A DNA stretch of 64,000 nucleotides from Dehalococcoidia bacterium (GTDB taxonomy: Bacteria > Chloroflexota > Dehalococcoidia > DSTF01 > WHTK01). How positions within the stretch are numbered: the first letter of the stretch is position 1; each line of letters begins with the position of its first letter. The notes below the pieces were generated by a model. The model did not search any database and had not been told where the DNA came from. It worked only from the letters and a program-made list of their open reading frames with translations. The position numbers were made by a program, and so were the translations under genes. Below are positions 6,731 through 52,634 of the stretch, one piece after another. The stretch is taken from the NCBI GenBank assembly GCA_965225815.1, contig CBDDBP010000007.1, forward strand, positions 221,621 to 285,620, given 5' to 3'.

Positions 6731-7404
6731 TCAGTTCAGGCTGAAGGGCGGGTACTTGTCGGTAAAAGCGGCGAGATAGGCGATGACGCGGGCAGTCCAC
6801 CTTTGATAGCCGACCACGAAAGTGTGCAAGCCGGCCGGGAAGGAGCCCGTGAACAGGATCGCGATCTGGGCGATGAAGACCAAAAGCAGTGCAATGATCC
6901 CGATGACATAAAGGATGGCTAGGTGAGCAACCAACTCCATATTTGAATCGCCAGGATGAACTTGATCGGGAAGAACGGCAGGTTTAACCATCGATTCGGG
7001 TGCTCGGGATAGTCGACCTGCATTTGAAGGGGTCGATTAGGTCTCTGATCCAAGTCCATCGGTGGATAGTCGTCAAATAGGTTAAGCAGATAGGCGTTCT
7101 GATTCATGTACCAACGGAGTGCACCGACCTCGAGCTTGAAGAGCCCGCGTGGATGTCGTCCCGTGAAGAGAATTCCCCACAACGAAACGAATACAGCCAG
7201 AACTGCTGTGTATTGGAGATACGCGAGTACGATTAGGTGAGGAACTAGAAGAAGCAGACGTATAAATGTTCCTAGTAGGAGAGGGAGGCCCAATATCCGC
7301 GACTGTCGGGGTTCGCGCTGGATGTCCAGTCGCAAGGGATACGTCGAGGGCGAGTCACTGCCCACGGATTCTGTCGTCATGATCGTCTTCCCCATTACTT
7401 GCAA
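6731..7404 (-). pseudogene. DUF4389-family membrane protein with two tandem DUF4389 repeats, interrupted by a frameshift near 6935-6960
   Basis: Two overlapping ORFs (6919..7404 and 6731..6991) each contain the DUF4389 hallmark ...LFTG(R/S)xPxGLxxFxVGxxRWxxxxxAYLxxxxDxYPP.... The helix preceding repeat 2 is split between frames (FILAIQ | ELVAHLAILY), consistent with a 1-nt indel in the caaata region. Confidence 0.45.
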
Positions 7405-7508
7405 GCCAGTTAACTGCTAACGGGAATATGCGTCTGAGGGCCAGCCCACACGGTTGTCAAGGAGCAATGGTCAGATCGGGGACTGGTCGTTTTGATAGGC
7501 AGGGAGCG

Positions 7509-7707
7509 TCAGGCGAGTTCGAATCGTGGTGGCCGGGAGCTTTGAAGCCGGGGGTGCCCGGACCCCACTGAAGGGGCAGAGGGGTTTTCTTAAGGCCGAA
7601 GTATCAGGCGAGCTCGAATCGCGCGGGTTCTAGCCAAGGCTTTGAAGCCGGGGGTGCCCCGGACCTCACTGAAGGGGCAGACAAGGGGTTTTCTTTAGGT
7701 CGAAGTA
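7509..7707. repeat. tandem direct repeats (~95 and ~104 bp). Each copy begins with a copy of the last ~25 nt, including the stop codon, of the adjacent MBL gene
   Basis: R1 runs 7509-7603, R2 7604-7707, and the gene terminus starts at 7708. The shared opening is tcaggcgag(t/c)tcgaatcg.... Each unit contains the 42-nt element gctttgaagccgggggtgccc(c)ggacc(c/t)cactgaaggggcag. Confidence 0.7.
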
Positions 7708-8679
7708 TCAGGCGAGTTCGAATCGCGGTGGCTCGATCCACTCGCCGGTTGGGGGATTCTCCTGGAGGAAGACGGCGCGGCGACGGTCCTGCTCGCGGTA
7801 TTCATCGGCCTGGCTCAGAACGGCCTCGCGAGTGGCGTGCTCGGCGGCTTCCTGCGCCGTTTCGGCGTCTGTGGGCTTGTGCGGCTTACCGGCGTGGAGC
7901 TGAAGGCGCCCCTCCTTGTCCAGCTTTGTGAGGTGACTCTGGACGTTGCGGTCGGCCGTGCGCCTGAGGCGGGAGTCGATGTCGGTGTAGATACGCTCCA
8001 TGATTTGCCAGCTGGTCAGCGGCTCGTCTTTAGAGAGTTCGGTGAGGATCTGTGACTCGCGTGTCTCGCGGTGCGAGATGTACTCGTTGATCAGGGCGGC
8101 TGGATTTTCGATCAGCGGGCCGTGGCCGGGGCAGATAAGGCGGAGGTTCGGCAGGGCCCTGAGGCGTCGCAGGCTCTGCATGTAGTCGGCTAGATCGTTG
8201 ACCGCGGTTGTGCTGCCGCCAAGGATCGTATCCCCGGTAAACAGCACGCCTTCCTCCTCGAGGTAGAAGCAGAGCGAGTCTGGGCTGTGTCCAGGCGTGT
8301 GCATGACCTGGAGACGGACGCCGCCGCCGGGACTGAGCGTGCCGCCTTCGAAGAGCGGGAGGACGTGGTCGGGCAGCTTGCCTTCGAGGCGGGATGCAGT
8401 CTCGGGCGAGACGTGGGCCTCGGCGTTGAACTCCTCGCAGACCCAGCGCAGGTTCGAGGAGTGGTCGAAGTGGAAGTGAGACAGCGCGCTGAGGCCAATC
8501 TCCGCCTTTTCGGTCGCGGCGAGATAACCGCGCAGCATCCAGCGGTAGCGGTCTTCATCGGCGCCGGTGTCTATGGCTAAGACCTGGTCTCGGCCGACGA
8601 GGTAAATCGTGGTGAACTGCGGGTGCATCGGGTCCGTCTCTGGGACCTGAACGGCACGGACGCTGGGGCTGACCTGCAT
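7708..8679 (-). CDS. MBL-fold metallo-hydrolase
   Basis: HFHFDHSSN (HxHxDH) and HTPGHSPDS motifs, followed by a C-terminal ~90 aa extension. Confidence 0.65.
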   Translation of the reverse strand: MQVSPSVRAVQVPETDPMHPQFTTIYLVGRDQVLAIDTGADEDRYRWMLRGYLAATEKAEIGLSALSHFHFDHSSNLRWVCEEFNAEAHVSPETASRLEGKLPDHVLPLFEGGTLSPGGGVRLQVMHTPGHSPDSLCFYLEEEGVLFTGDTILGGSTTAVNDLADYMQSLRRLRALPNLRLICPGHGPLIENPAALINEYISHRETRESQILTELSKDEPLTSWQIMERIYTDIDSRLRRTADRNVQSHLTKLDKEGRLQLHAGKPHKPTDAETAQEAAEHATREAVLSQADEYREQDRRRAVFLQENPPTGEWIEPPRFELA

Positions 8680-8691
8680 GACGCCCTCATT

Positions 8692-8723
8692 CTACGTGGC
8701 TACGTGGCTACGTGGCGGCGTGG
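8692..8723. repeat. tandem octamer CTACGTGG x3 (+ CGGCGTGG), 13 nt upstream of the MBL start codon (within its 5' UTR/promoter)
   Basis: Read directly from the sequence. Related (C/T)GTGGGTGG motifs recur at 11157-11233. Confidence 0.5.
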
Positions 8724-9732: not shown

Positions 9733-11286
9733 GTGTTAGCTAACCCCAGTCCTTACGAAGCCCTCGATCAGATCCTAGAAACGTCAGGCAGAGCGCGGTC
9801 GCCGGAAGACCGCGTTTTCATTGACGGCGCGGATCCGGTCTTGCCGACGGCGTTTCGTTTGGGGACGGCTGGCGCGGCGGCGATCGCGGCGACTGGGCTG
9901 GCGGCGGCTGATTTATGGCAGCTGCGCAGCGGCCGAAGCCAGGACGTATCGGTCAGCCTGCGTGACGCTGCAGCGGTGATACGGAGCGATCGCTTCCTGC
10001 GCCTGGACGGTGAGGCGCCGCCATCGCCGTGGTCGCCGACGGCTGGCTTCTACCGGACGCGCGACGAGCGCTGGATCCAGGTCCACAGCAACTTTCCGCA
10101 TCACCTGGACGCCGCGCTGCGGGTCCTGGGCTGCGCGGGCGACCGGGACGCGGTATCGAAGGCCGTGGCCGGGTGGCAGGCGTTCGAGCTGGAGGATGCG
10201 CTGAATGACGCCGGGATGTGCGCCGCCGTGGTGCGTAGCGAGGCCGAGTGGCGCGAGGTGCCACAGGCGGAAGTCGTGGCCGGGCTGCCGCTGTTTGAGA
10301 TCGTGAAGCTGGGCGAGAGCGCGCCGGAGCCGTTGCCACCGGGCGACCGGCCGCTGGCGGGTGTGCGCGTGCTGGACCTGACGCGGGTGATCGCCGGGCC
10401 GGTGGGCGGACGGACGCTGGCGGCGCACGGGGCGGACGTGATGCGCGTGACGGGCGACCATCTGCCAGGCTTCCCGGAAAGCCTCGACATCGACATGGGG
10501 CACGGCAAACTATCGGCGAGCCTGGACCTGCGAAGCGCCGACGAGCGCGGGCGCCTTTTGGGACTGGTCGACGAGGCGGACGTGTTCTTGCAGTCGTACC
10601 GTCCGGGATCCCTGGCGGGACGGGGACTAGCGCCGGACGCGCTGGCTTCGCGGCGGCCGGGGCTGATCTACGCGACGCTGAGTGCCTACGGGCACGTTGG
10701 GCCGTGGCGGGAGCGGCGTGGCTTCGACAGTATCGTGCAGTCGATCAGCGGCATCGTGCATGAGGAGAGCGGTGACGGGCCGCCTCGACACATGCCGGCG
10801 CAGGCGCTGGACTACGTTTCGGGGTATGTGCTGGCGTTCGGGATCATGCGTGCCCTGGCGCGGCGGGCGGAGGAAGGCGGCAGCTACCTCGTGCGGGTGT
10901 CGCTGGCGCAGACCGGGGCATGGATTCAGGGTTTGGGCCGGGTGGCGTTTTCGGAGGCAGCCGCCGCGGACGACGACGTGCCGGCGCGGCTGGTGGAGAC
11001 GGAGTCGCCGTTCGGGGTGCTGCGGCACTTGGGGCCCGTTGTACGGCTGTCGGAGAGCGCGGCGCGGTGGGCGCGGCCGAGCGTGCCTTTGGGGTCCAGC
11101 GCGGCGGAATGGCGCCTCGTTAGCATTCGACGCCGAGGCTGGAAAGCCTCGGCTAAGTGGGTGGAGACGGGGCTATGTGGGAAAAGCCTCGGCGTCGTGG
11201 GTGGAGACGGGGCTACGTGGGTGGAGATTCGTGGCGAATGGTGTCAGGGCGGACTCTGCAGAAGGTGTAGGAACTCTGCAGGTTGA
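9733..11286 (+). CDS. CoA-transferase family III (CaiB/BaiF/Frc-like) protein with non-canonical motif order and a low-confidence C-terminal tail
   Basis: The family III N-terminal glycine-rich motif (PLAGVRVLDLTRVIAGP) sits at about residue 205. A catalytic-Asp region (QALDYVSGYVLAFGIMRAL) follows at about residue 390. The first ~200 aa resemble the post-Asp helices plus the small (middle) domain. The C-terminal ~60 aa read through tandem repeats. GTG start. Confidence 0.55.
   Translation: MLANPSPYEALDQILETSGRARSPEDRVFIDGADPVLPTAFRLGTAGAAAIAATGLAAADLWQLRSGRSQDVSVSLRDAAAVIRSDRFLRLDGEAPPSPWSPTAGFYRTRDERWIQVHSNFPHHLDAALRVLGCAGDRDAVSKAVAGWQAFELEDALNDAGMCAAVVRSEAEWREVPQAEVVAGLPLFEIVKLGESAPEPLPPGDRPLAGVRVLDLTRVIAGPVGGRTLAAHGADVMRVTGDHLPGFPESLDIDMGHGKLSASLDLRSADERGRLLGLVDEADVFLQSYRPGSLAGRGLAPDALASRRPGLIYATLSAYGHVGPWRERRGFDSIVQSISGIVHEESGDGPPRHMPAQALDYVSGYVLAFGIMRALARRAEEGGSYLVRVSLAQTGAWIQGLGRVAFSEAAAADDDVPARLVETESPFGVLRHLGPVVRLSESAARWARPSVPLGSSAAEWRLVSIRRRGWKASAKWVETGLCGKSLGVVGGDGATWVEIRGEWCQGGLCRRCRNSAG
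11142..11233. repeat. two ~39-bp tandem direct repeats (aagcctcggc(t/g)(a/t)(a/c)gtgggtggagacggggcta(t/c)gtggg) plus a partial third copy, inside the 3' end of the CoA-transferase ORF
   Basis: Read directly from the sequence. Confidence 0.6.
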
Positions 11287-23781: not shown

Positions 23782-25626
23782 CTACTCGACGGTGACGACT
23801 TTGGCGAGGTTGCGCGGCTGGTCGACATCGCAGCCTTTGAGCCGAGCCAGGTGATACGCGAAAAGCTGCAAAGGGATGGCCGTCACCAGCGGCTGTAGCA
23901 GCGGTGGCGCGTTGGGAACGTAAACAACGTCGCGAACGCGGTCGCGAATCGATTCATTGCCTTCCGTGGCGATGGCAATGACGATGCCGTCGCGGGCTCG
24001 GACTTCCTCGATGTTGTTGAGCATCTTGACGTAGTGCTCATCCCGCACGGCGATGGCGACGACCGGCATCTTGGCGTCGATCAGCGAGATCGGACCGTGT
24101 TTCATCTCGCCGGCGGGGTAGCCTTCGGCGTGAATGTAGGAAACCTCTTTGAGCTTAAGGGCTCCCTCCATTGCGCTGGTGTACTGGATGCCGCGGCCAA
24201 GGAAGAGGACGTTACGGGCGCGTCGATAGCGCCGGGCGAGTTTTTCAACCGCGGGCTCGGTCTTCAGCGCTTCGCCGATGATCTGGGGCGCCCGGGCAAG
24301 GTCGCTGAGGGCGGCGAGGAGATGGTCGCCGCCGAGGAAGCCGCGCTTGTGGCCGATGTAGCAGGCCAGTAGATAGAGCGCGGTCAGCGAGCCGAGATAG
24401 GTCTTGGTGGAAGCGACAGCGACTTCAGGCCCGCATTGCATGTAGACGATGCCATGGGCCAGCCGCGTGGCCTGAGAGCCCGGCGTGTTGCAGACCGTGA
24501 CGACGTGAGCGCCACGGCGCTTCGCTTCGAGCATCGCACCCAGGGTGTCGACGGATTCTCCCGACTGGCCGACGGAGACGACGAGGGTGCGCTTATCGAG
24601 CACGGGGCGGCGGTAGCGGTACTCGGAGGCGTTGTCGGCCTCGGCGGGTAAGCCGGCGAGCTGTTCGACATAGATTCGACCGACCTGGGCGGCGTGGAAG
24701 CTCGTCCCCATCCCGATGAGGACGACCCGGTCGAGGTCTGAGATCTCACGGTCACTGAGATTGAGGTCTGCGAGGTGGACGGCGGGCGGTTCGAGCTGGG
24801 CGGCATCGCGTAGCGTGTCGAGCACGGCCTCTGGCTGCTCCGCGATCTCCTTCGCCATGTAGTGGTCGTAGAGGCCTTTGCCGGCGACGTATGAGCCGAC
24901 GGGCAGCGTCTGTGGCTCTTTTTGAATCGGCTGGCCGTTGAAATCGGAATACCTTGCGCCGCTGCTGGTGACGCAGGCCATCTCGCCGTCCTCGAGAAAG
25001 ACGACGCTCTGGCTTCGATCTGCGATGGCGGGGAGGTCGCTAGCAACGAGCATCTCGTCCTTGCCGTAGCCGATAACGACGCCGCCGGCGTTGGCGACCC
25101 GCGCCGCGACAATGACGCCGGGTTCCTGCTGGTGGATCGTGAGGACGGCCGCTGCACCTTCGATCCGGCTCAGGGCCGCCGCGGTGGCGCCCGCGAGGTC
25201 GAGGCCGTTCTTGATTCCGGATTCGATGAGATGAGGAATGACCTCCGTGTCGGTCTGGGAGCGGAATTCACAGCCCTTCGATTCGAGCTCGAGTCGCAGC
25301 TCGCGGTGGTTTTCGACGATGCCGTTGTGGATGACGGCGATCTCGTTACTGCAATCGAGGTGAGGATGGGCGTTGAGTTGCGAAGCGCGGCCGTGGGTGG
25401 CCCAACGCGTGTGGCCGATCCCCGTGCCCGTGCCTTTGAGTGAGGCAGGGATCTTGTTGCGCAGGTTGACCAGCTTGCCAGCGTCCTTGGCGGTGGCCAG
25501 GGCGCCGTGGCTATCGATCACGGCGATGCCGGCGCTGTCGTAGCCGCGATATTCGAGCTGAGACAGGCCGTCGAGGACAACGGGGACGGCCTCGTCAGGG
25601 CCGACGTAGCCAACGATGCCACACAT
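23782..25626 (-). CDS. glmS: glutamine--fructose-6-phosphate aminotransferase GlmS
   Basis: N-terminal MCGIVGYVG (Ntn Cys), two SIS domains, and the C-terminal ...VTVE. 614 aa. Confidence 0.9.
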   Translation of the reverse strand: MCGIVGYVGPDEAVPVVLDGLSQLEYRGYDSAGIAVIDSHGALATAKDAGKLVNLRNKIPASLKGTGTGIGHTRWATHGRASQLNAHPHLDCSNEIAVIHNGIVENHRELRLELESKGCEFRSQTDTEVIPHLIESGIKNGLDLAGATAAALSRIEGAAAVLTIHQQEPGVIVAARVANAGGVVIGYGKDEMLVASDLPAIADRSQSVVFLEDGEMACVTSSGARYSDFNGQPIQKEPQTLPVGSYVAGKGLYDHYMAKEIAEQPEAVLDTLRDAAQLEPPAVHLADLNLSDREISDLDRVVLIGMGTSFHAAQVGRIYVEQLAGLPAEADNASEYRYRRPVLDKRTLVVSVGQSGESVDTLGAMLEAKRRGAHVVTVCNTPGSQATRLAHGIVYMQCGPEVAVASTKTYLGSLTALYLLACYIGHKRGFLGGDHLLAALSDLARAPQIIGEALKTEPAVEKLARRYRRARNVLFLGRGIQYTSAMEGALKLKEVSYIHAEGYPAGEMKHGPISLIDAKMPVVAIAVRDEHYVKMLNNIEEVRARDGIVIAIATEGNESIRDRVRDVVYVPNAPPLLQPLVTAIPLQLFAYHLARLKGCDVDQPRNLAKVVTVE

Positions 25627-25754
25627 GCGGGCCTCCGGTGCGGCGCGAGACGCGTCTTTGCGTACCTACGAATCGTAGGCAGCACGACACGCCGCGGCGA
25701 CCGCGACTATGAGGAGGAACGGAGGACTGTCTGGGGAATCGCGAAGTCTTCGCG

Positions 25755-25960
25755 ATGCACGTCGGCGCAGTTTTGTCGGGAGCTTGCGCATCCCGGTTTG
25801 TCTGCGACGTTACGACTGTGCCAGCCGAGAGGCCACCCGCCGAGTTTTTCGAAGAGCCTCTTCCTCGTCATCCGATTGGCTTTGAAAGCCCGGGGACACC
25901 CCGGACCCCGCTAAAGGGGGTTACAAAGCTGGCAAATCTTCAATCGGACCTGGCGCTTTC
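25755..25960 (-). ncRNA. glmS_ribozyme: glmS ribozyme (glucosamine-6-phosphate-activated self-cleaving ribozyme) in the glmS 5' UTR
   Basis: The minus strand reads A|GCGCCAGG..., then ...UGACGAGGAAGAGGCUCUUCGAAAAACUCGGCGGGUGGCCUCUCGGCUG...GUAACG...CAAACCGGGAUGCGCAAGCUCCCGACAAAAC. The GACGAGG-AGG-UUCGAA-UCGGCGG-UG-CCUC-CGGCUG core and the CAAACC...GACAAA P4 region match the conserved glmS ribozyme pattern. It ends about 130 nt upstream of the glmS ATG. Confidence 0.7.
25879..25929. repeat. copy of the ~45-nt dispersed element (gctttgaaagcccggggacaccccggaccccgctaaagggggttacaaagc) embedded between the ribozyme's 5' AGCGCC and the GACGAGG core
   Basis: About 80% identical to the element at 7539-7579 and 7639-7680. 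In the minus-strand transcript it can fold as GCUUUG...CAAAGC closing two GC hairpins. Confidence 0.5.
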
Positions 25961-26148
25961 AGAACGACAGTCCCTGGGTCAACCTCCCTATCGAGTTGCT
26001 GGAAGTGAATATAGCACGGGTCGAACAGACCGGTAGTCAGGTGGTTCAGGGACAGGGCGGAGGGCGCCAAAGCGCTGGATGCCGAAGGGAGGGGTATATA
26101 CGCAGCTCGAGGAAGCGTCGGGAGGCGCGGCCAGCGCGTTTGAAGACG

Positions 26149-34220: not shown

Positions 34221-34250
34221 TTGTCCTGACGCCAGCGCCGCACCTATACT
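34221..34250 (+). promoter_or_regulatory. candidate sigma-70-type promoter (TTGTCC - 18 nt - TATACT) for the riboswitch-btuFCD transcript
   Basis: Hexamers read directly from the sequence. Spacing is 18 nt. Predicted TSS is about 34257. Confidence 0.3.
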
Positions 34251-34257
34251 GCCGTCA

Positions 34258-34478
34258 CGTCATGGGTGTCCCTCTTGCAAGCGAGGGAGTAAATGCGAAG
34301 CCGGTCAAAAATCCGGCGCTGTCCCGCAACTGTAGCCCCGAAAACGATTCGGGGGAGCCAGGCCGCCAGCCCGTGACGATGTCTCTGGAAGCCTCCGTGG
34401 AGGGGCCGAGACATCGTCTGAGCCAAGGCATAAGACGATTCGCCCCCGGCCCCATAGAGGCCGGGGTTTTGTTTTGCG
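34258..34478 (+). ncRNA. cobalamin (AdoCbl) riboswitch with intrinsic-terminator expression platform
   Basis: GCGAGGGAG...GCGAAGCCGGUCAAAAAUCCGGCGCUGUCCCGCAACUGUAGCC...GGGGGAGCCAGGCCGCCAGC contains the conserved cobalamin-riboswitch blocks (GGUxAAAAUCC, GCUGxCCCGCAACUGUA, AGCCAGG B12-box region). It is followed by the hairpin CCCCGGCC-CCAUAGA-GGCCGGGG plus UUUUGUUUU at 34444-34476. It lies upstream of a BtuF-like binding-protein gene. Confidence 0.7.
34444..34476 (+). terminator. intrinsic terminator (8-bp GC stem + TTTTGTTTT) forming the riboswitch OFF-state
   Basis: Read directly from the sequence. Confidence 0.65.
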
Positions 34479-50292: not shown

Positions 50293-51379
50293 ATGGGTCA
50301 CAAGACGCATCCGATCGGCTTCCGCCTGGGAATCCTGTATCCGTGGCAGAGCAAGTGGTACGCCGACAAAAACTACACAGAGCTGCTGCACGAGGACCTG
50401 GGCCTGCGCAAGATGATCCTGGCGCGCCTGTCCGATGCGGCGGTATCTCGGGTTGAGCTGGAACGCAACGCGAACCAGGTCATCGTCACGATTCATACGG
50501 CAAAGCCCGGCATCGTCATCGGCCGAGGTGGTCAGAAGGTCGATGAGCTTCGCGGCGACCTCGAGAAGAAGACGGGCCGCAGGATCCGGGTGAATATCGT
50601 CGAGATCCGCCAGCCGGAACTCGACGCCTACCTGGTAGCGCGCAGCGTCGCAGACCAGCTGGAACGCCGGGTGGCTTTCCGCCGGGCAATGAAGCAGGCG
50701 GTGACTCGGACGATGCAGCGTGGCGCGCGCGGCGTGAAAATAACGGTCGGCGGACGCCTTGGTGGTTCTGAGATGTCGCGTCGCGAGACGGAAAAAGACG
50801 GCCGTGTGCCGCTGCATACGCTGCGAGCAGATGTTGACTTTGGCCAGGCCGAAGCGGCGACGACATTCGGCCGAATCGGCGTGAAGGCGTGGATCTACCG
50901 CGGCGACATCATGCCTGAGCCGAGTGCGGCACGCCCCGGCGAAGAAGAGACAAGCCTGCCTCCGACGCCGGTCACCCCTGTTGCGCGGCGGCGGCACCGG
51001 TTGCCCCCGCCGCACCTGTGGCCGAGGCGGCACCGGTTGCCCCCGCCGCACCTGTGGCCGAGGCGGCACCGGTTGCCCCCGCCGCACCTGTGGCCGAGGC
51101 GGCACCGGTTGCCCCCGCCGCACCTGTGGCCGAGGCGGCACCGGTTGCCCCCGCCGCACCTGTGGCCGAGGCGGCACCGGTTGCCCCCGCCGCACCTGTG
51201 GCCAGGCGGCACCGGTTGCCCCTGCAGCACCTGTAGCTGAGGCGGCTCCAGCCGCACCCGCCGCACCTGTAGCCGAGGCACCGAGCCCGCCGGCAGCAGA
51301 AGCGCCGCTCGCAGCACCAGAGACTACGGCGGCCGAGCCAGCGGCGTCGGAAGAAACGCCAGGAAGCGGGGAGGCCTAG
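50293..51379 (+). CDS. rpsC: 30S ribosomal protein S3 with Ala/Pro/Val/Glu-rich tandem-repeat C-terminal tail; the tail frame is interrupted twice in this sequence
   Basis: The canonical S3 KH/C-terminal domains run in frame 1 to about 50985. The plausible tail ([12 protein letters not shown] repeats ... GEA*) lies in frame 0 across the repeats and frame 2 after a 1-nt deletion in copy 6. It ends 3 nt before rplP. The uninterrupted frame 1 would encode [12 protein letters not shown] x6 and then a TAG at 51238. Confidence 0.75.
50992..51278 (+). repeat. 36-nt tandem repeat (cggcaccggttgcccccgccgcacctgtggccgagg): 5 identical copies, a sixth with a 1-nt deletion, then 2 diverged copies, inside rpsC
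   Basis: Read directly. Substitutions in copies 7 and 8 are synonymous only in the Ala/Pro frame. Confidence 0.8.
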
Positions 51380-52029: not shown

Positions 52030-52634
52030 GCGAGAGTACGCGAGGGCGTCGCAAGAGCCTGATAGGAACTGTTGTCAGCGTCAAGATGGAAAAGACGGCT
52101 GTCGTGTCGGTAGAGCGCCGTTATCCGCATCAGCTCTATCACAAGATCATCCGATCGACGAAGCGCTACAAGGCGCACGATCCGCTCAACGCAGCGGTCC
52201 TGGGTGACACGGTCCGCATCGTGGAGACGCGTCCGATTTCGAAAGAGAAGCGATGGCGCATCTCCGAGACGATGACGCGCGGCAACGTGGCCGACATCGC
52301 GCCGCGTGAGATCGGCGTGCCCGAAGAAGGTCTGTATCATCCGGAGCGCCCAGACCCGGCGCCGGCGGCTGTAGCAGAAGCCGCGGTTGAGGCGGAGACC
52401 CCGGAGGCGGCAACCGAAGCGGCGTCTGCGGAAGAAACGTCACCAGCGGCTGAAGCACAGGCTGCAGTTGAGGCGGAGACCCCGGAGGTGACAACCGAGG
52501 TGGCGTCCGTTGCGGATGAGGCTCCGGTCGCTGAGCCGGAAGCGGCTCCGGCCGCTGAGCCGGAGGCGACACCAGCCGCTGAGGTCGGAGAGACGACTGG
52601 GGAAGAGCCGGCAGAGGGCGGCGAAAAGGAATGA
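52026..52634 (+). CDS. rpsQ: 30S ribosomal protein S17 with ~110-aa Ala/Glu/Pro-rich C-terminal extension
   Basis: Canonical S17 OB-fold core, then ...[22 protein letters not shown]...[12 protein letters not shown] overlaps the L29 stop. Confidence 0.85.

Follow-up and report, generated by a model that had tools for sequence, protein, structure and literature searches.

What has copied the end of a gene for an MBL-fold hydrolase twice over, with a small hairpin-forming sequence set between the copies? The question is raised by a 64-kb stretch of a Dehalococcoidia genome (contig CBDDBP010000007.1, positions 221,621 to 285,620; hereafter the window, in whose own numbering positions are given, L-numbers being used for comparison loci), where a short tandem array abuts the stop codon of this gene. 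The reading to which we would give about an even chance (roughly 0.5) is that the array was built by a non-autonomous DNA element, like both REP (repetitive extragenic palindromic) sequences and MITEs (miniature transposable elements with inverted repeats), which acts at the replication fork, makes a long target duplication on insertion and is then amplified locally.

Tandem Repeats Finder reports an array of period 104 at 7539-7727 (1.9 copies, 91% matches, score 316), and a repeat search of the window finds 25-nt copies of the gene end in register at 7509, 7604 and 7708; with the 7509 copy as reference, that at 7708 is 96% identical and that at 7604 is 80% identical. The stop codon of the 323-aa open reading frame (ORF) that occupies 7708-8679 on the minus strand appears in reverse complement as the TCA at 7708-7710, and the three copies in register bear out what the first-pass annotation had claimed, that two units (7509-7603 and 7604-7707) open with the last codons and stop of the MBL gene. 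The block that is truly repeated is 7509-7732, or to 7740 for the middle copy, whose similarity to the gene extends that far, rather than 7405-7707. A degenerate third unit that had been proposed at 7405-7508 was abandoned, as it aligns to the two units at shuffle level (216 of 500 and 482 of 500 shuffles were equal or better) and the covariance model introduced below finds nothing there; the interval holds a promoter-like region of the neighbouring gene. Along the plus strand the order is gene-end copy, 70-nt unit, gene-end copy, 71-nt unit and real gene end:

7509..7533, minus strand: outer MBL gene-end copy, last 7-8 codons and stop, 24/25 identical to 7708-7732
7534..7603, plus strand: element copy X1, 70 nt (covariance model, 48.6 bits)
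7604..7636, minus strand: middle gene-end copy, first 25 nt clear with 4 mismatches to the gene, similarity to about 33 nt
7637..7707, plus strand: element copy X2, 71 nt (covariance model, 50.6 bits)
7708..7740, minus strand: real MBL 3' end with the stop at 7708-7710, the functional member of the triplicated block (ORF list, repeat search)
7708..8679, minus strand: MBL-fold hydrolase gene, 323 aa (Lactamase_B and WHD_BLACT), intact despite the insertions

The single mismatch of the outer gene-end copy is synonymous in the MBL frame. Copy X1 consists of a 5' arm (CGGGAGCTTTGAAG), hairpin A at 7548-7561 (CCGGG-GGTG-CCCGG), an A at 7562, hairpin B at 7563-7576 (CCCC-ACTGAA-GGGG) and a 27-nt tail that ends in AGGCCGAAGTA and is common to the subfamily members L005, L016 and L040. 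In X2 hairpin A lies at 7648-7662 (CCGGGG-GTG-CCCCGG) and hairpin B at 7664-7677 (CCTC-ACTGAA-GGGG, with one T.G pair), followed by a 30-nt tail, the motif in each unit being CCGGG(G)-GTG-(C)CCCGG and CC(C/T)C-ACTGAA-GGGG with one A in between. The two array units, which at 95 and 104 nt are out of frame, can be aligned over their full extent, the differences coming to about 9% plus three indels, and the array adds about 200 nt to the intergenic region downstream of the MBL gene. An identical array is present in an independent Logan assembly from another read set (L001, 99.5% identical over 5.2 kb), so that a one-off assembly duplication, the doubt which the first-pass annotation had raised against itself, is unlikely.

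A dispersed repeat family

The family was collected with a pattern in which only the stems are fixed and the loops are free (CCGGGG N3-4 CCCGGACCYC N4 AAGGGG). In one-genome-per-species GTDB contigs it matches 25 loci, nearly all in metagenome-assembled genomes (MAGs) titled Dehalococcoidia or Chloroflexia, with up to 13 family loci in a single MAG; a further 18 loci come from JGI metagenomes, making 43 in total, and by exact match the copy number in two complete chromosomes is low, with one or two loci each. One pattern match (L008, Thermaceae) lies inside an 847-aa ORF, has different loops and was treated as chance. The same pattern found no locus in the viral contigs of IMG/VR, and a phage origin of the element was rejected. 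A covariance model of 46 positions, built from 26 family copies, returns 88 matches at E<=1e-5 in 40 sources, among which same-strand arrays with periods of 54-107 nt are frequent, and in the window, with filters off, it finds exactly three copies, all on the plus strand, at 7538-7582 (48.6 bits), 7638-7683 (50.6 bits) and 25880-25925 (60.3 bits). The earlier suggestions of a REP- or MITE-like repeat, and that the motif should be sought in other genomes, were therefore well placed, this being a dispersed, hairpin-forming family found mainly in Dehalococcoidia and Chloroflexia MAGs.

The element unit is about 70 nt long, with a 30-nt core that is almost invariant. Its consensus has a 13-14 nt arm, two GC hairpins (CCGGGG-ACA-CCCCGG and CCCC-GCTAAA-GGGG, with an A between them) and a tail of about 27 nt that varies by subfamily, the extended form reading TTTGCA-TTGAAAGA-hairpin A-A-hairpin B-CGCAtGagGCGTC before the tail. 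The loops are conserved even though the pattern left them free (ACA, GCA or GTG; GCTAAA, GCTGAA or ACTGAA), and compensatory CG to UA changes occur among copies in hairpin A. The window units belong to a subfamily with an ACTGAA loop whose 70-71-nt unit, including the tail (...AGGCCGARGT), is also found in L005, L016 (chromosome OZ240228.1) and L040, and in L005 two 71-nt units abut directly; a unit shared with its tail by unrelated loci, and able to abut another, is a discrete element with defined ends.

A second subfamily keeps hairpin B and has TGGGGGC-TCY-GCCCCCA instead of CCGGGG-ACA-CCCCGG as hairpin A (L018 1679-1725, L023 3359-3430, L035 559-606 and 1852-1898, L048 1816-1863). Half units, made of the arm, hairpin A and the start of hairpin B (TTGAAAGA-CCGGGGACACCCCGG-ACCC), are common and stand head-to-tail on the 5' side of full units (L002, L003, L004, L014, L022, L024, L034, L039 and L045), where it looks as if copying had restarted after hairpin A.

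The array is not a CRISPR array, as had been said of it from the start, since the whole unit of about 100 nt is repeated at 91% and the sequence between the cores is itself repeated and partly derived from the gene. Rfam returns nothing beyond glmS and cobalamin for the whole window at gathering score, only noise over 7300-7800 at E<=10, and no match at E<=1 for canonical copies from five other loci. The core sequence was not found in any of the papers searched, among which keywords gave no such repeat in Chloroflexota or Dehalococcoidia. On these comparisons the element is an undescribed, lineage-specific extragenic repeat family of soil Chloroflexota, with the window array a fairly ordinary instance.

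Host duplications and empty sites

In at least seven independent loci beyond the window, single copies of the element are bracketed by direct repeats of 25-48 nt of host sequence, which score z = 5-30 against shuffles. The lengths of insert and repeat, and the host sequence repeated, are as follows:

Window, inserts of 70 and 71 nt with repeats of 25 and 33 nt: host direct repeats
L009, insert 75 nt, repeat 28 nt: MBL gene stop region
L012, insert 78 nt, repeat 29 nt (26 nt perfect): unnamed ORF, within the last codons
L018, insert 68 nt, repeat 39 nt, another unit with 62 nt: Meth_synt_2 gene stop region
L023, insert 65 nt, repeat 37 nt: ribosome-binding site and start codon
L049, insert 73 nt, repeat 34 nt, perfect: M24 peptidase ribosome-binding site and start codon
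L042, insert 60 nt, repeat 25 nt: ribosome-binding site and start codon
L045, insert 93 nt, repeat 48 nt, around one and a half units: HNH gene ribosome-binding site and start codon

These repeats span a start or stop codon or lie within about 11 nt of one, L012 being the non-spanning case, in which the element tail supplies a new stop codon. The functional duplicate is the copy contiguous with the gene body, and if the long duplications are made at insertion, the mode of insertion would protect genes, since the start or stop region is rebuilt next to that body.

Three regularities among the same loci come from small numbers and are not used as evidence here: the spacing from repeat to repeat is 95-107 nt in seven loci, the duplicated block begins at the stop codon in three of four stop-codon cases, and the gene body lies on the 3' side of the element in all seven independent insertions with flanking repeats. 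Elsewhere, at L005 (6380) and L016 (2136, in OZ240228.1), the 5' arm of the element (GTGATTGC and GTGATGAC respectively) gives the TGA stop of an upstream gene in the same sense, a thing also reported of REP elements.

The site in the MBL gene can be compared with its closest orthologue with flanking DNA, L027/L028 (MBL 85% identical in amino acids; P0003 is equally close). There the stop is followed directly by CG... (...CTCGCCTGA|CG...) in a 105-nt intergenic region without an element, and in the window this CG... comes after the gene-end copy that lies outermost. L009, with an MBL 74% identical in amino acids and synteny with the DUF4389 gene kept, is filled at the MBL 3' end by a member of a different subfamily. 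Either the site has been hit twice, or an old insertion was precisely lost from the L027 lineage by recombination between the repeats. The array had been thought a possible footprint of site-specific insertion and excision at the gene's 3' end; the insertion is upheld by the empty site of L027/L028, but the duplicated sequences vary by locus, which makes the footprint of a site-specific recombinase unlikely.

Three other loci (L029, L030 and L031) have MBL-DUF4389 spacers of 172-243 nt, compared to 105 nt in L027, and the extra sequence is unrelated, with no match to the element model in any of these spacers; extra DNA seems to land in this spacer repeatedly. Elements also lie just upstream of the starts of orthologous M24 peptidase genes (87% nucleotide identity) at L007 (3990-4035) and L049 (1237-1282), in opposite orientation to the gene, the latter with its perfect 34-nt flanking repeat and the former with none. 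Turnover of the arrays is fast: in L018 and L035 the flanks are 98.5-99.3% identical and the internal units differ.

Strand polarity, RNA-level tests and the glmS copy

With elements masked in the calculation of GC skew, 31 of the 33 loci of at least 2.5 kb that form the main set, and 36 of 39 overall, have the element on the G-rich strand, and the bias is there among loci with mostly sense neighbours as well as among those with mostly antisense ones. Only two loci have the element on the C-rich strand, one of them L007. G-rich skew conventionally marks the leading strand. In the window the skew is +0.06 to +0.14 over all 64 kb, with the three copies on the plus strand. Orientation to genes is by comparison mixed, for where the neighbours run the same way there are five sense and nine antisense cases, and a further three settings are convergent and six divergent; some copies lie in divergent promoter regions or just upstream of start codons. 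The first-pass annotation had noted the same orientation to transcription at both window loci, which is indeed seen, but its transcriptional meaning falls away: both host genes are on the minus strand and the copies follow the G-rich plus strand, and the shared antisense orientation to the transcripts is the outcome.

Across 81 distinct copies the hairpin mismatches number four G.T and five C.A. The choice of a folded strand from wobble pairs was accordingly dropped, two examples in the window having favoured the plus strand with no signal across the 81 copies. The proposed check on RNA structure and covariation did yield the compensatory changes in hairpin A. Shuffled sequence folds as well as the array does (z 0.21 for the minus strand and 0.55 for the plus strand). 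Folds of single sequences suggested a three-way junction whose closing stem covaries, an idea rejected when a permutation test found no copy-specific complementarity: the longest helix came to 5.27 between a copy's own flanks and to 5.25 between the flanks of different copies (132 of 300 permutations as high). No site with a GC hairpin and U-tract was found on the minus (gene) strand over 7300-7800, where the sole terminator match, at 7474-7488 on the plus strand, is at chance level; a terminator or promoter function of the array was discarded, there being no consensus sites beyond chance. Mixed gene orientation, the lack of a strand preference among mismatches, and the absence of a terminator or of excess folding thus leave a role at the mRNA level, such as the 3' untranslated region (UTR) stability element once suggested, unsupported, and a role in MBL expression is probably absent.

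The third copy lies well away from the array, near the GlmS coding sequence (23782-25626, minus strand):

25753..25968, minus strand: glmS ribozyme hosting the third copy (RF00234, full-length match of 79 bits, threshold 37)
25880..25937, plus strand: third element copy, a 58-nt insertion in the P1 apical loop of the ribozyme (model match 25880-25925, 60.3 bits; core 25890-25919)

The element shared with the glmS leader, already noticed on first inspection, is thereby placed more exactly in the P1 loop. A structured insertion at this point, 55-62 nt in the clade, is present in the relatives L050-L054, whose GlmS is 95% and 86% identical, and the outgroup L055 (GlmS 71%) has an ordinary short P1 with no insertion. 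A recent jump into P1 was considered and rejected, as no close relative has an empty site and only L055 is without the insertion. As the relatives at 95% and 86% identity all carry it, the insertion of the P1 copy is old and has been inherited, the loop being a tolerant one. The window and the intact copy of L052 have a near-perfect core; the copies of L053 and L054 are altered in part, and that of L050, the closest relative, has decayed.

Mechanism, alternatives and known systems

The element may spread in DNA form at the fork, where it would probably be single-stranded and folded, on one template strand. On entry at the MBL gene end it would have duplicated roughly the final 25 nt, with frame and stop kept in the copy that adjoins the gene body and the spare copy displaced outwards; the second unit could then have come from recombination or slippage between the duplicated gene ends, or from a second insertion. 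No benefit of the element for the MBL gene has been demonstrated and the locus is probably neutral.

A number of observations weigh against this account. Many copies have no flanking repeat, no conserved target motif is found at the junctions of the loci compared, and there are no terminal inverted repeats, the unit ends not being inverted copies of each other. The outer gene-end copy of the window is better kept than the middle one (24/25 compared to 21/25), which neither a single unequal crossover nor a single tandem duplication predicts, and to account for its younger look either gene conversion or a pair of events is needed. Beside the elements no transposase, integrase or reverse transcriptase was seen to recur, though no genome-wide search was made, and a Y1 transposase was not seen among the top 25 Pfam families listed for 90 flanking genes, or among 10 genes bracketed by elements. 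The idea of a neighbouring mobilising gene was dropped, the flanking genes being ordinary ones of metabolism and transport and the only nuclease seen a small HNH gene at L045. We know of no standard transposase that fits variable duplications of 25-48 nt, nor of an enzyme class to which the absence of inverted repeats and of a constant target would belong; DDE transposases give short target duplications of fixed length, and the mobilisation of IS200/IS605 (Y1) and REP elements leaves none. The direction of replication is itself read from GC skew, with no origin or terminus in view. Finally, at a site that is orthologous among genomes whose GlmS differs by 14%, the core of the P1 copy has stayed almost perfect, a finding that hints at selection or gene conversion over pure selfish decay. 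The more ambitious proposal, that a new bacterial repeat mechanism places a folded strand of about 70 nt at the fork in one orientation and re-copies 25-48 nt of target, is one that we hold only tentatively and consider doubtful; it might work through insertion of an Okazaki fragment, a template switch or a nuclease with widely staggered cuts, and the preference for gene borders and the repeat spacing of about 100-107 nt would then reflect that machinery.

It would be rather unlikely, in our estimate, that the element is instead a replication-polar signal serving the host, a site for protein binding or folding kept by selection and used in priming, restart, topology or segregation, with arrays and duplications as by-products of slippage. 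The 30-nt core, loops included, is almost invariant across MAGs as the flanks diverge, orientation is strongly biased with respect to GC skew, the core of the orthologous P1 copy is retained at 86% GlmS identity, and separate genomes have elements at the same borders (window and L009 at the MBL 3' end, L049 and L007 at the M24 start). The apparent conservation is however inflated by the exact-core pattern used for collecting, many copies in arrays and in the P1 of L050 are decayed, one or two exact-match loci in each of two complete chromosomes are few, and insertions with host duplications and the empty site of L027 are left unexplained. Less likely again is a purely local origin, in which a resident hairpin stalls replication and slippage or template switching duplicates 25-33 nt into the gene with no transposition. 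The many periods (54, 65, 68, 71, 79 and about 100 nt), the half units 5' of full units and the fast shift of array contents between near-identical genomes do have the look of slippage. Tandem duplication would nevertheless put the element outermost, where the gene-end copy is found, followed by ancestral downstream sequence; single elements stand between two host copies with no second element (L009, L012, L023 and L049), the same unit of about 70 nt, tail included, occurs at unrelated loci of other genomes, and L027 has no element at all.

That the motif works in the MBL and glmS mRNAs as a stabiliser, processing site, terminator or small RNA appears improbable, despite its having the same sense to the host transcript at both window loci, stable hairpins and, in one unit, a T.G pair that is tolerated only on the plus strand; REP elements are capable of acting in 3' UTRs (10.64898/2026.03.23.713779; PMC3733652). 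The mixed orientation to genes across the family, with copies in divergent promoter regions and upstream of starts, the balance of G.T and C.A mismatches, and the lack of an Rfam match, a U-tract terminator or an excess of folding all speak against it. Integrative elements classically duplicate the 3' ends of their target genes, and the duplicated block in the window does begin at the stop codon, but it is very improbable that an integrase-type element has repeatedly entered and left the MBL 3' end with a gene-end attachment site of its own: the unit of about 70 nt encodes nothing, no recurrent integrase is nearby, and the duplicated sequences, from stop regions at some loci and start regions at others, differ at every locus, so that no matching attachment site is carried and the idea is largely refuted. 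Hardly credible, lastly, is a repeat collapsed or expanded by the assembler; two small indels relative to L001 lie nearby, and consensus errors are possible there, yet the independent assembly has the same array, the units differ by about 9% and three indels, and the same architecture recurs across many unrelated assemblies.

How the preferred reading, of an inserting element at the fork, sits with known systems is best seen class by class. For REP sequences and the bacterial interspersed mosaic elements (BIMEs), single-stranded processing at the fork and a rolling-circle-like amplification of arrays have been proposed (PMC3333891, PMC3733652). Like these, the element is short, GC-rich, hairpin-forming, extragenic and clustered, has a conserved motif 5' of the hairpin foot, lies beside or overlapping stop codons (as with the TGA of the arm in L005 and L016) and shows compensatory changes in its stems. 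Unlike them it has two different hairpins and a tail, head-to-tail arrays where REPs form inverted pairs, and long host duplications; the REP tag at the palindrome foot is GTAG or CGTC, whereas the element has TTGAAAGA or TTTGAAG 5' of hairpin A. GCGTC is present downstream of hairpin B in many copies, never at the hairpin foot and not in the window copies, and a gene for the REP-associated tyrosine transposase (RAYT) was not seen at any element locus examined. Single-strand transposition by Y1 transposases acts on the lagging-strand template (PMC3333891, PMC5027513), and the "peel and paste" derivatives of IS200/IS605 share with the element subterminal hairpins, strand specificity and an orientation to the lagging-strand template (PMC5027513, PMC6006769); they differ in inserting 3' of a fixed target of 4-5 nt with no target duplication, as against long duplications with no conserved target.

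The resemblance to MITEs lies in small size, lack of coding capacity, multiple copies, insertion at gene borders, presence that varies among related genomes, and flanking repeats in some copies (PMC10969869), and in MITEs such repeats are seen only in young copies (PMC10969869). The element has, however, no terminal inverted repeats and no related insertion sequence, is GC-rich where MITEs are AT-rich, has variable repeats of 25-48 nt where theirs are short and fixed, and shows a strong replication-strand bias. With integrative islands at tRNA and tmRNA sites it has in common a spare gene 3' end beyond the insert and an intact gene, but these islands measure kilobases and have an integrase and a fixed attachment sequence, and the element is an insert of 70 nt that duplicates whatever its target holds. 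Mycobacterial MIRUs are intergenic units of 46-101 bp in direct tandem, whose ends overlap the flanking stop and start codons, and are interpreted as coupled small ORFs inside an operon; by contrast the units described here are out of frame, based on hairpins and oriented by replication rather than by operon. In its working the element is nearest to REP/BIME and to the single-strand insertion sequence derivatives, it is MITE-like in its target-derived flanking repeats, and it fails a defining feature of each class.

Small extragenic repeats are well studied in proteobacteria and almost unknown in Chloroflexota, a phylum abundant in soil and known mainly from MAGs. The present family joins the hairpins and polarity of REP and IS200/IS605 with duplications of the MITE type that are far longer and variable, and a family that pairs long target duplications with a polarity to replication is unusual, a combination that can be tested; if the long duplications do arise at insertion, they point to a mode, so far undescribed, in which DNA is placed at the replication fork. 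On a practical level the elements mimic the ends and starts of genes, by which gene callers can be misled, and are likely break points of short-read assemblies, several copies lying at contig ends. The insertion tolerated in glmS is furthermore a natural test of extra structural load in the P1 loop.

A few minor features of the window may also be recorded. Relative to L001 (2941 and 3441) it has two extra stretches, of 7 nt at 7445-7451 and of 17 nt at 6928-6944. The former sits in a promoter-like TTGACA (7455-7460, minus strand)-N17-CATATT (7425-7430) upstream of the DUF4389 gene, an arrangement kept in five related loci, and makes the spacer 24 nt; the latter lies inside the DUF4389 ORF and turns a 210-aa gene into ORFs of 161 and 86 aa. 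Both thus hit one gene, through either strain-level pseudogenisation or consensus errors. In the divergent region that the MBL gene has in common with the ORF at 8712 (plus strand), CTACGTGG occurs three times (8692-8723) immediately upstream of the MBL start, and a related motif, GGCTACGTGGG, lies in a 40-nt repeat present twice at 11143-11227, within the 3' end of a called ORF (9733-11286, plus strand); these may be a binding motif for a regulator or another small repeat. A 36-nt tandem repeat in eight copies (94% matches), with an 81-nt repeat in two copies and a 24-nt repeat in three nearby (50990-51279 and 52357-52583), probably consists of coding repeats of an Ala/Pro-rich protein, since all three periods are multiples of three. 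A cobalamin riboswitch (RF00174, 60.6 bits) lies at 34247-34388 on the plus strand.

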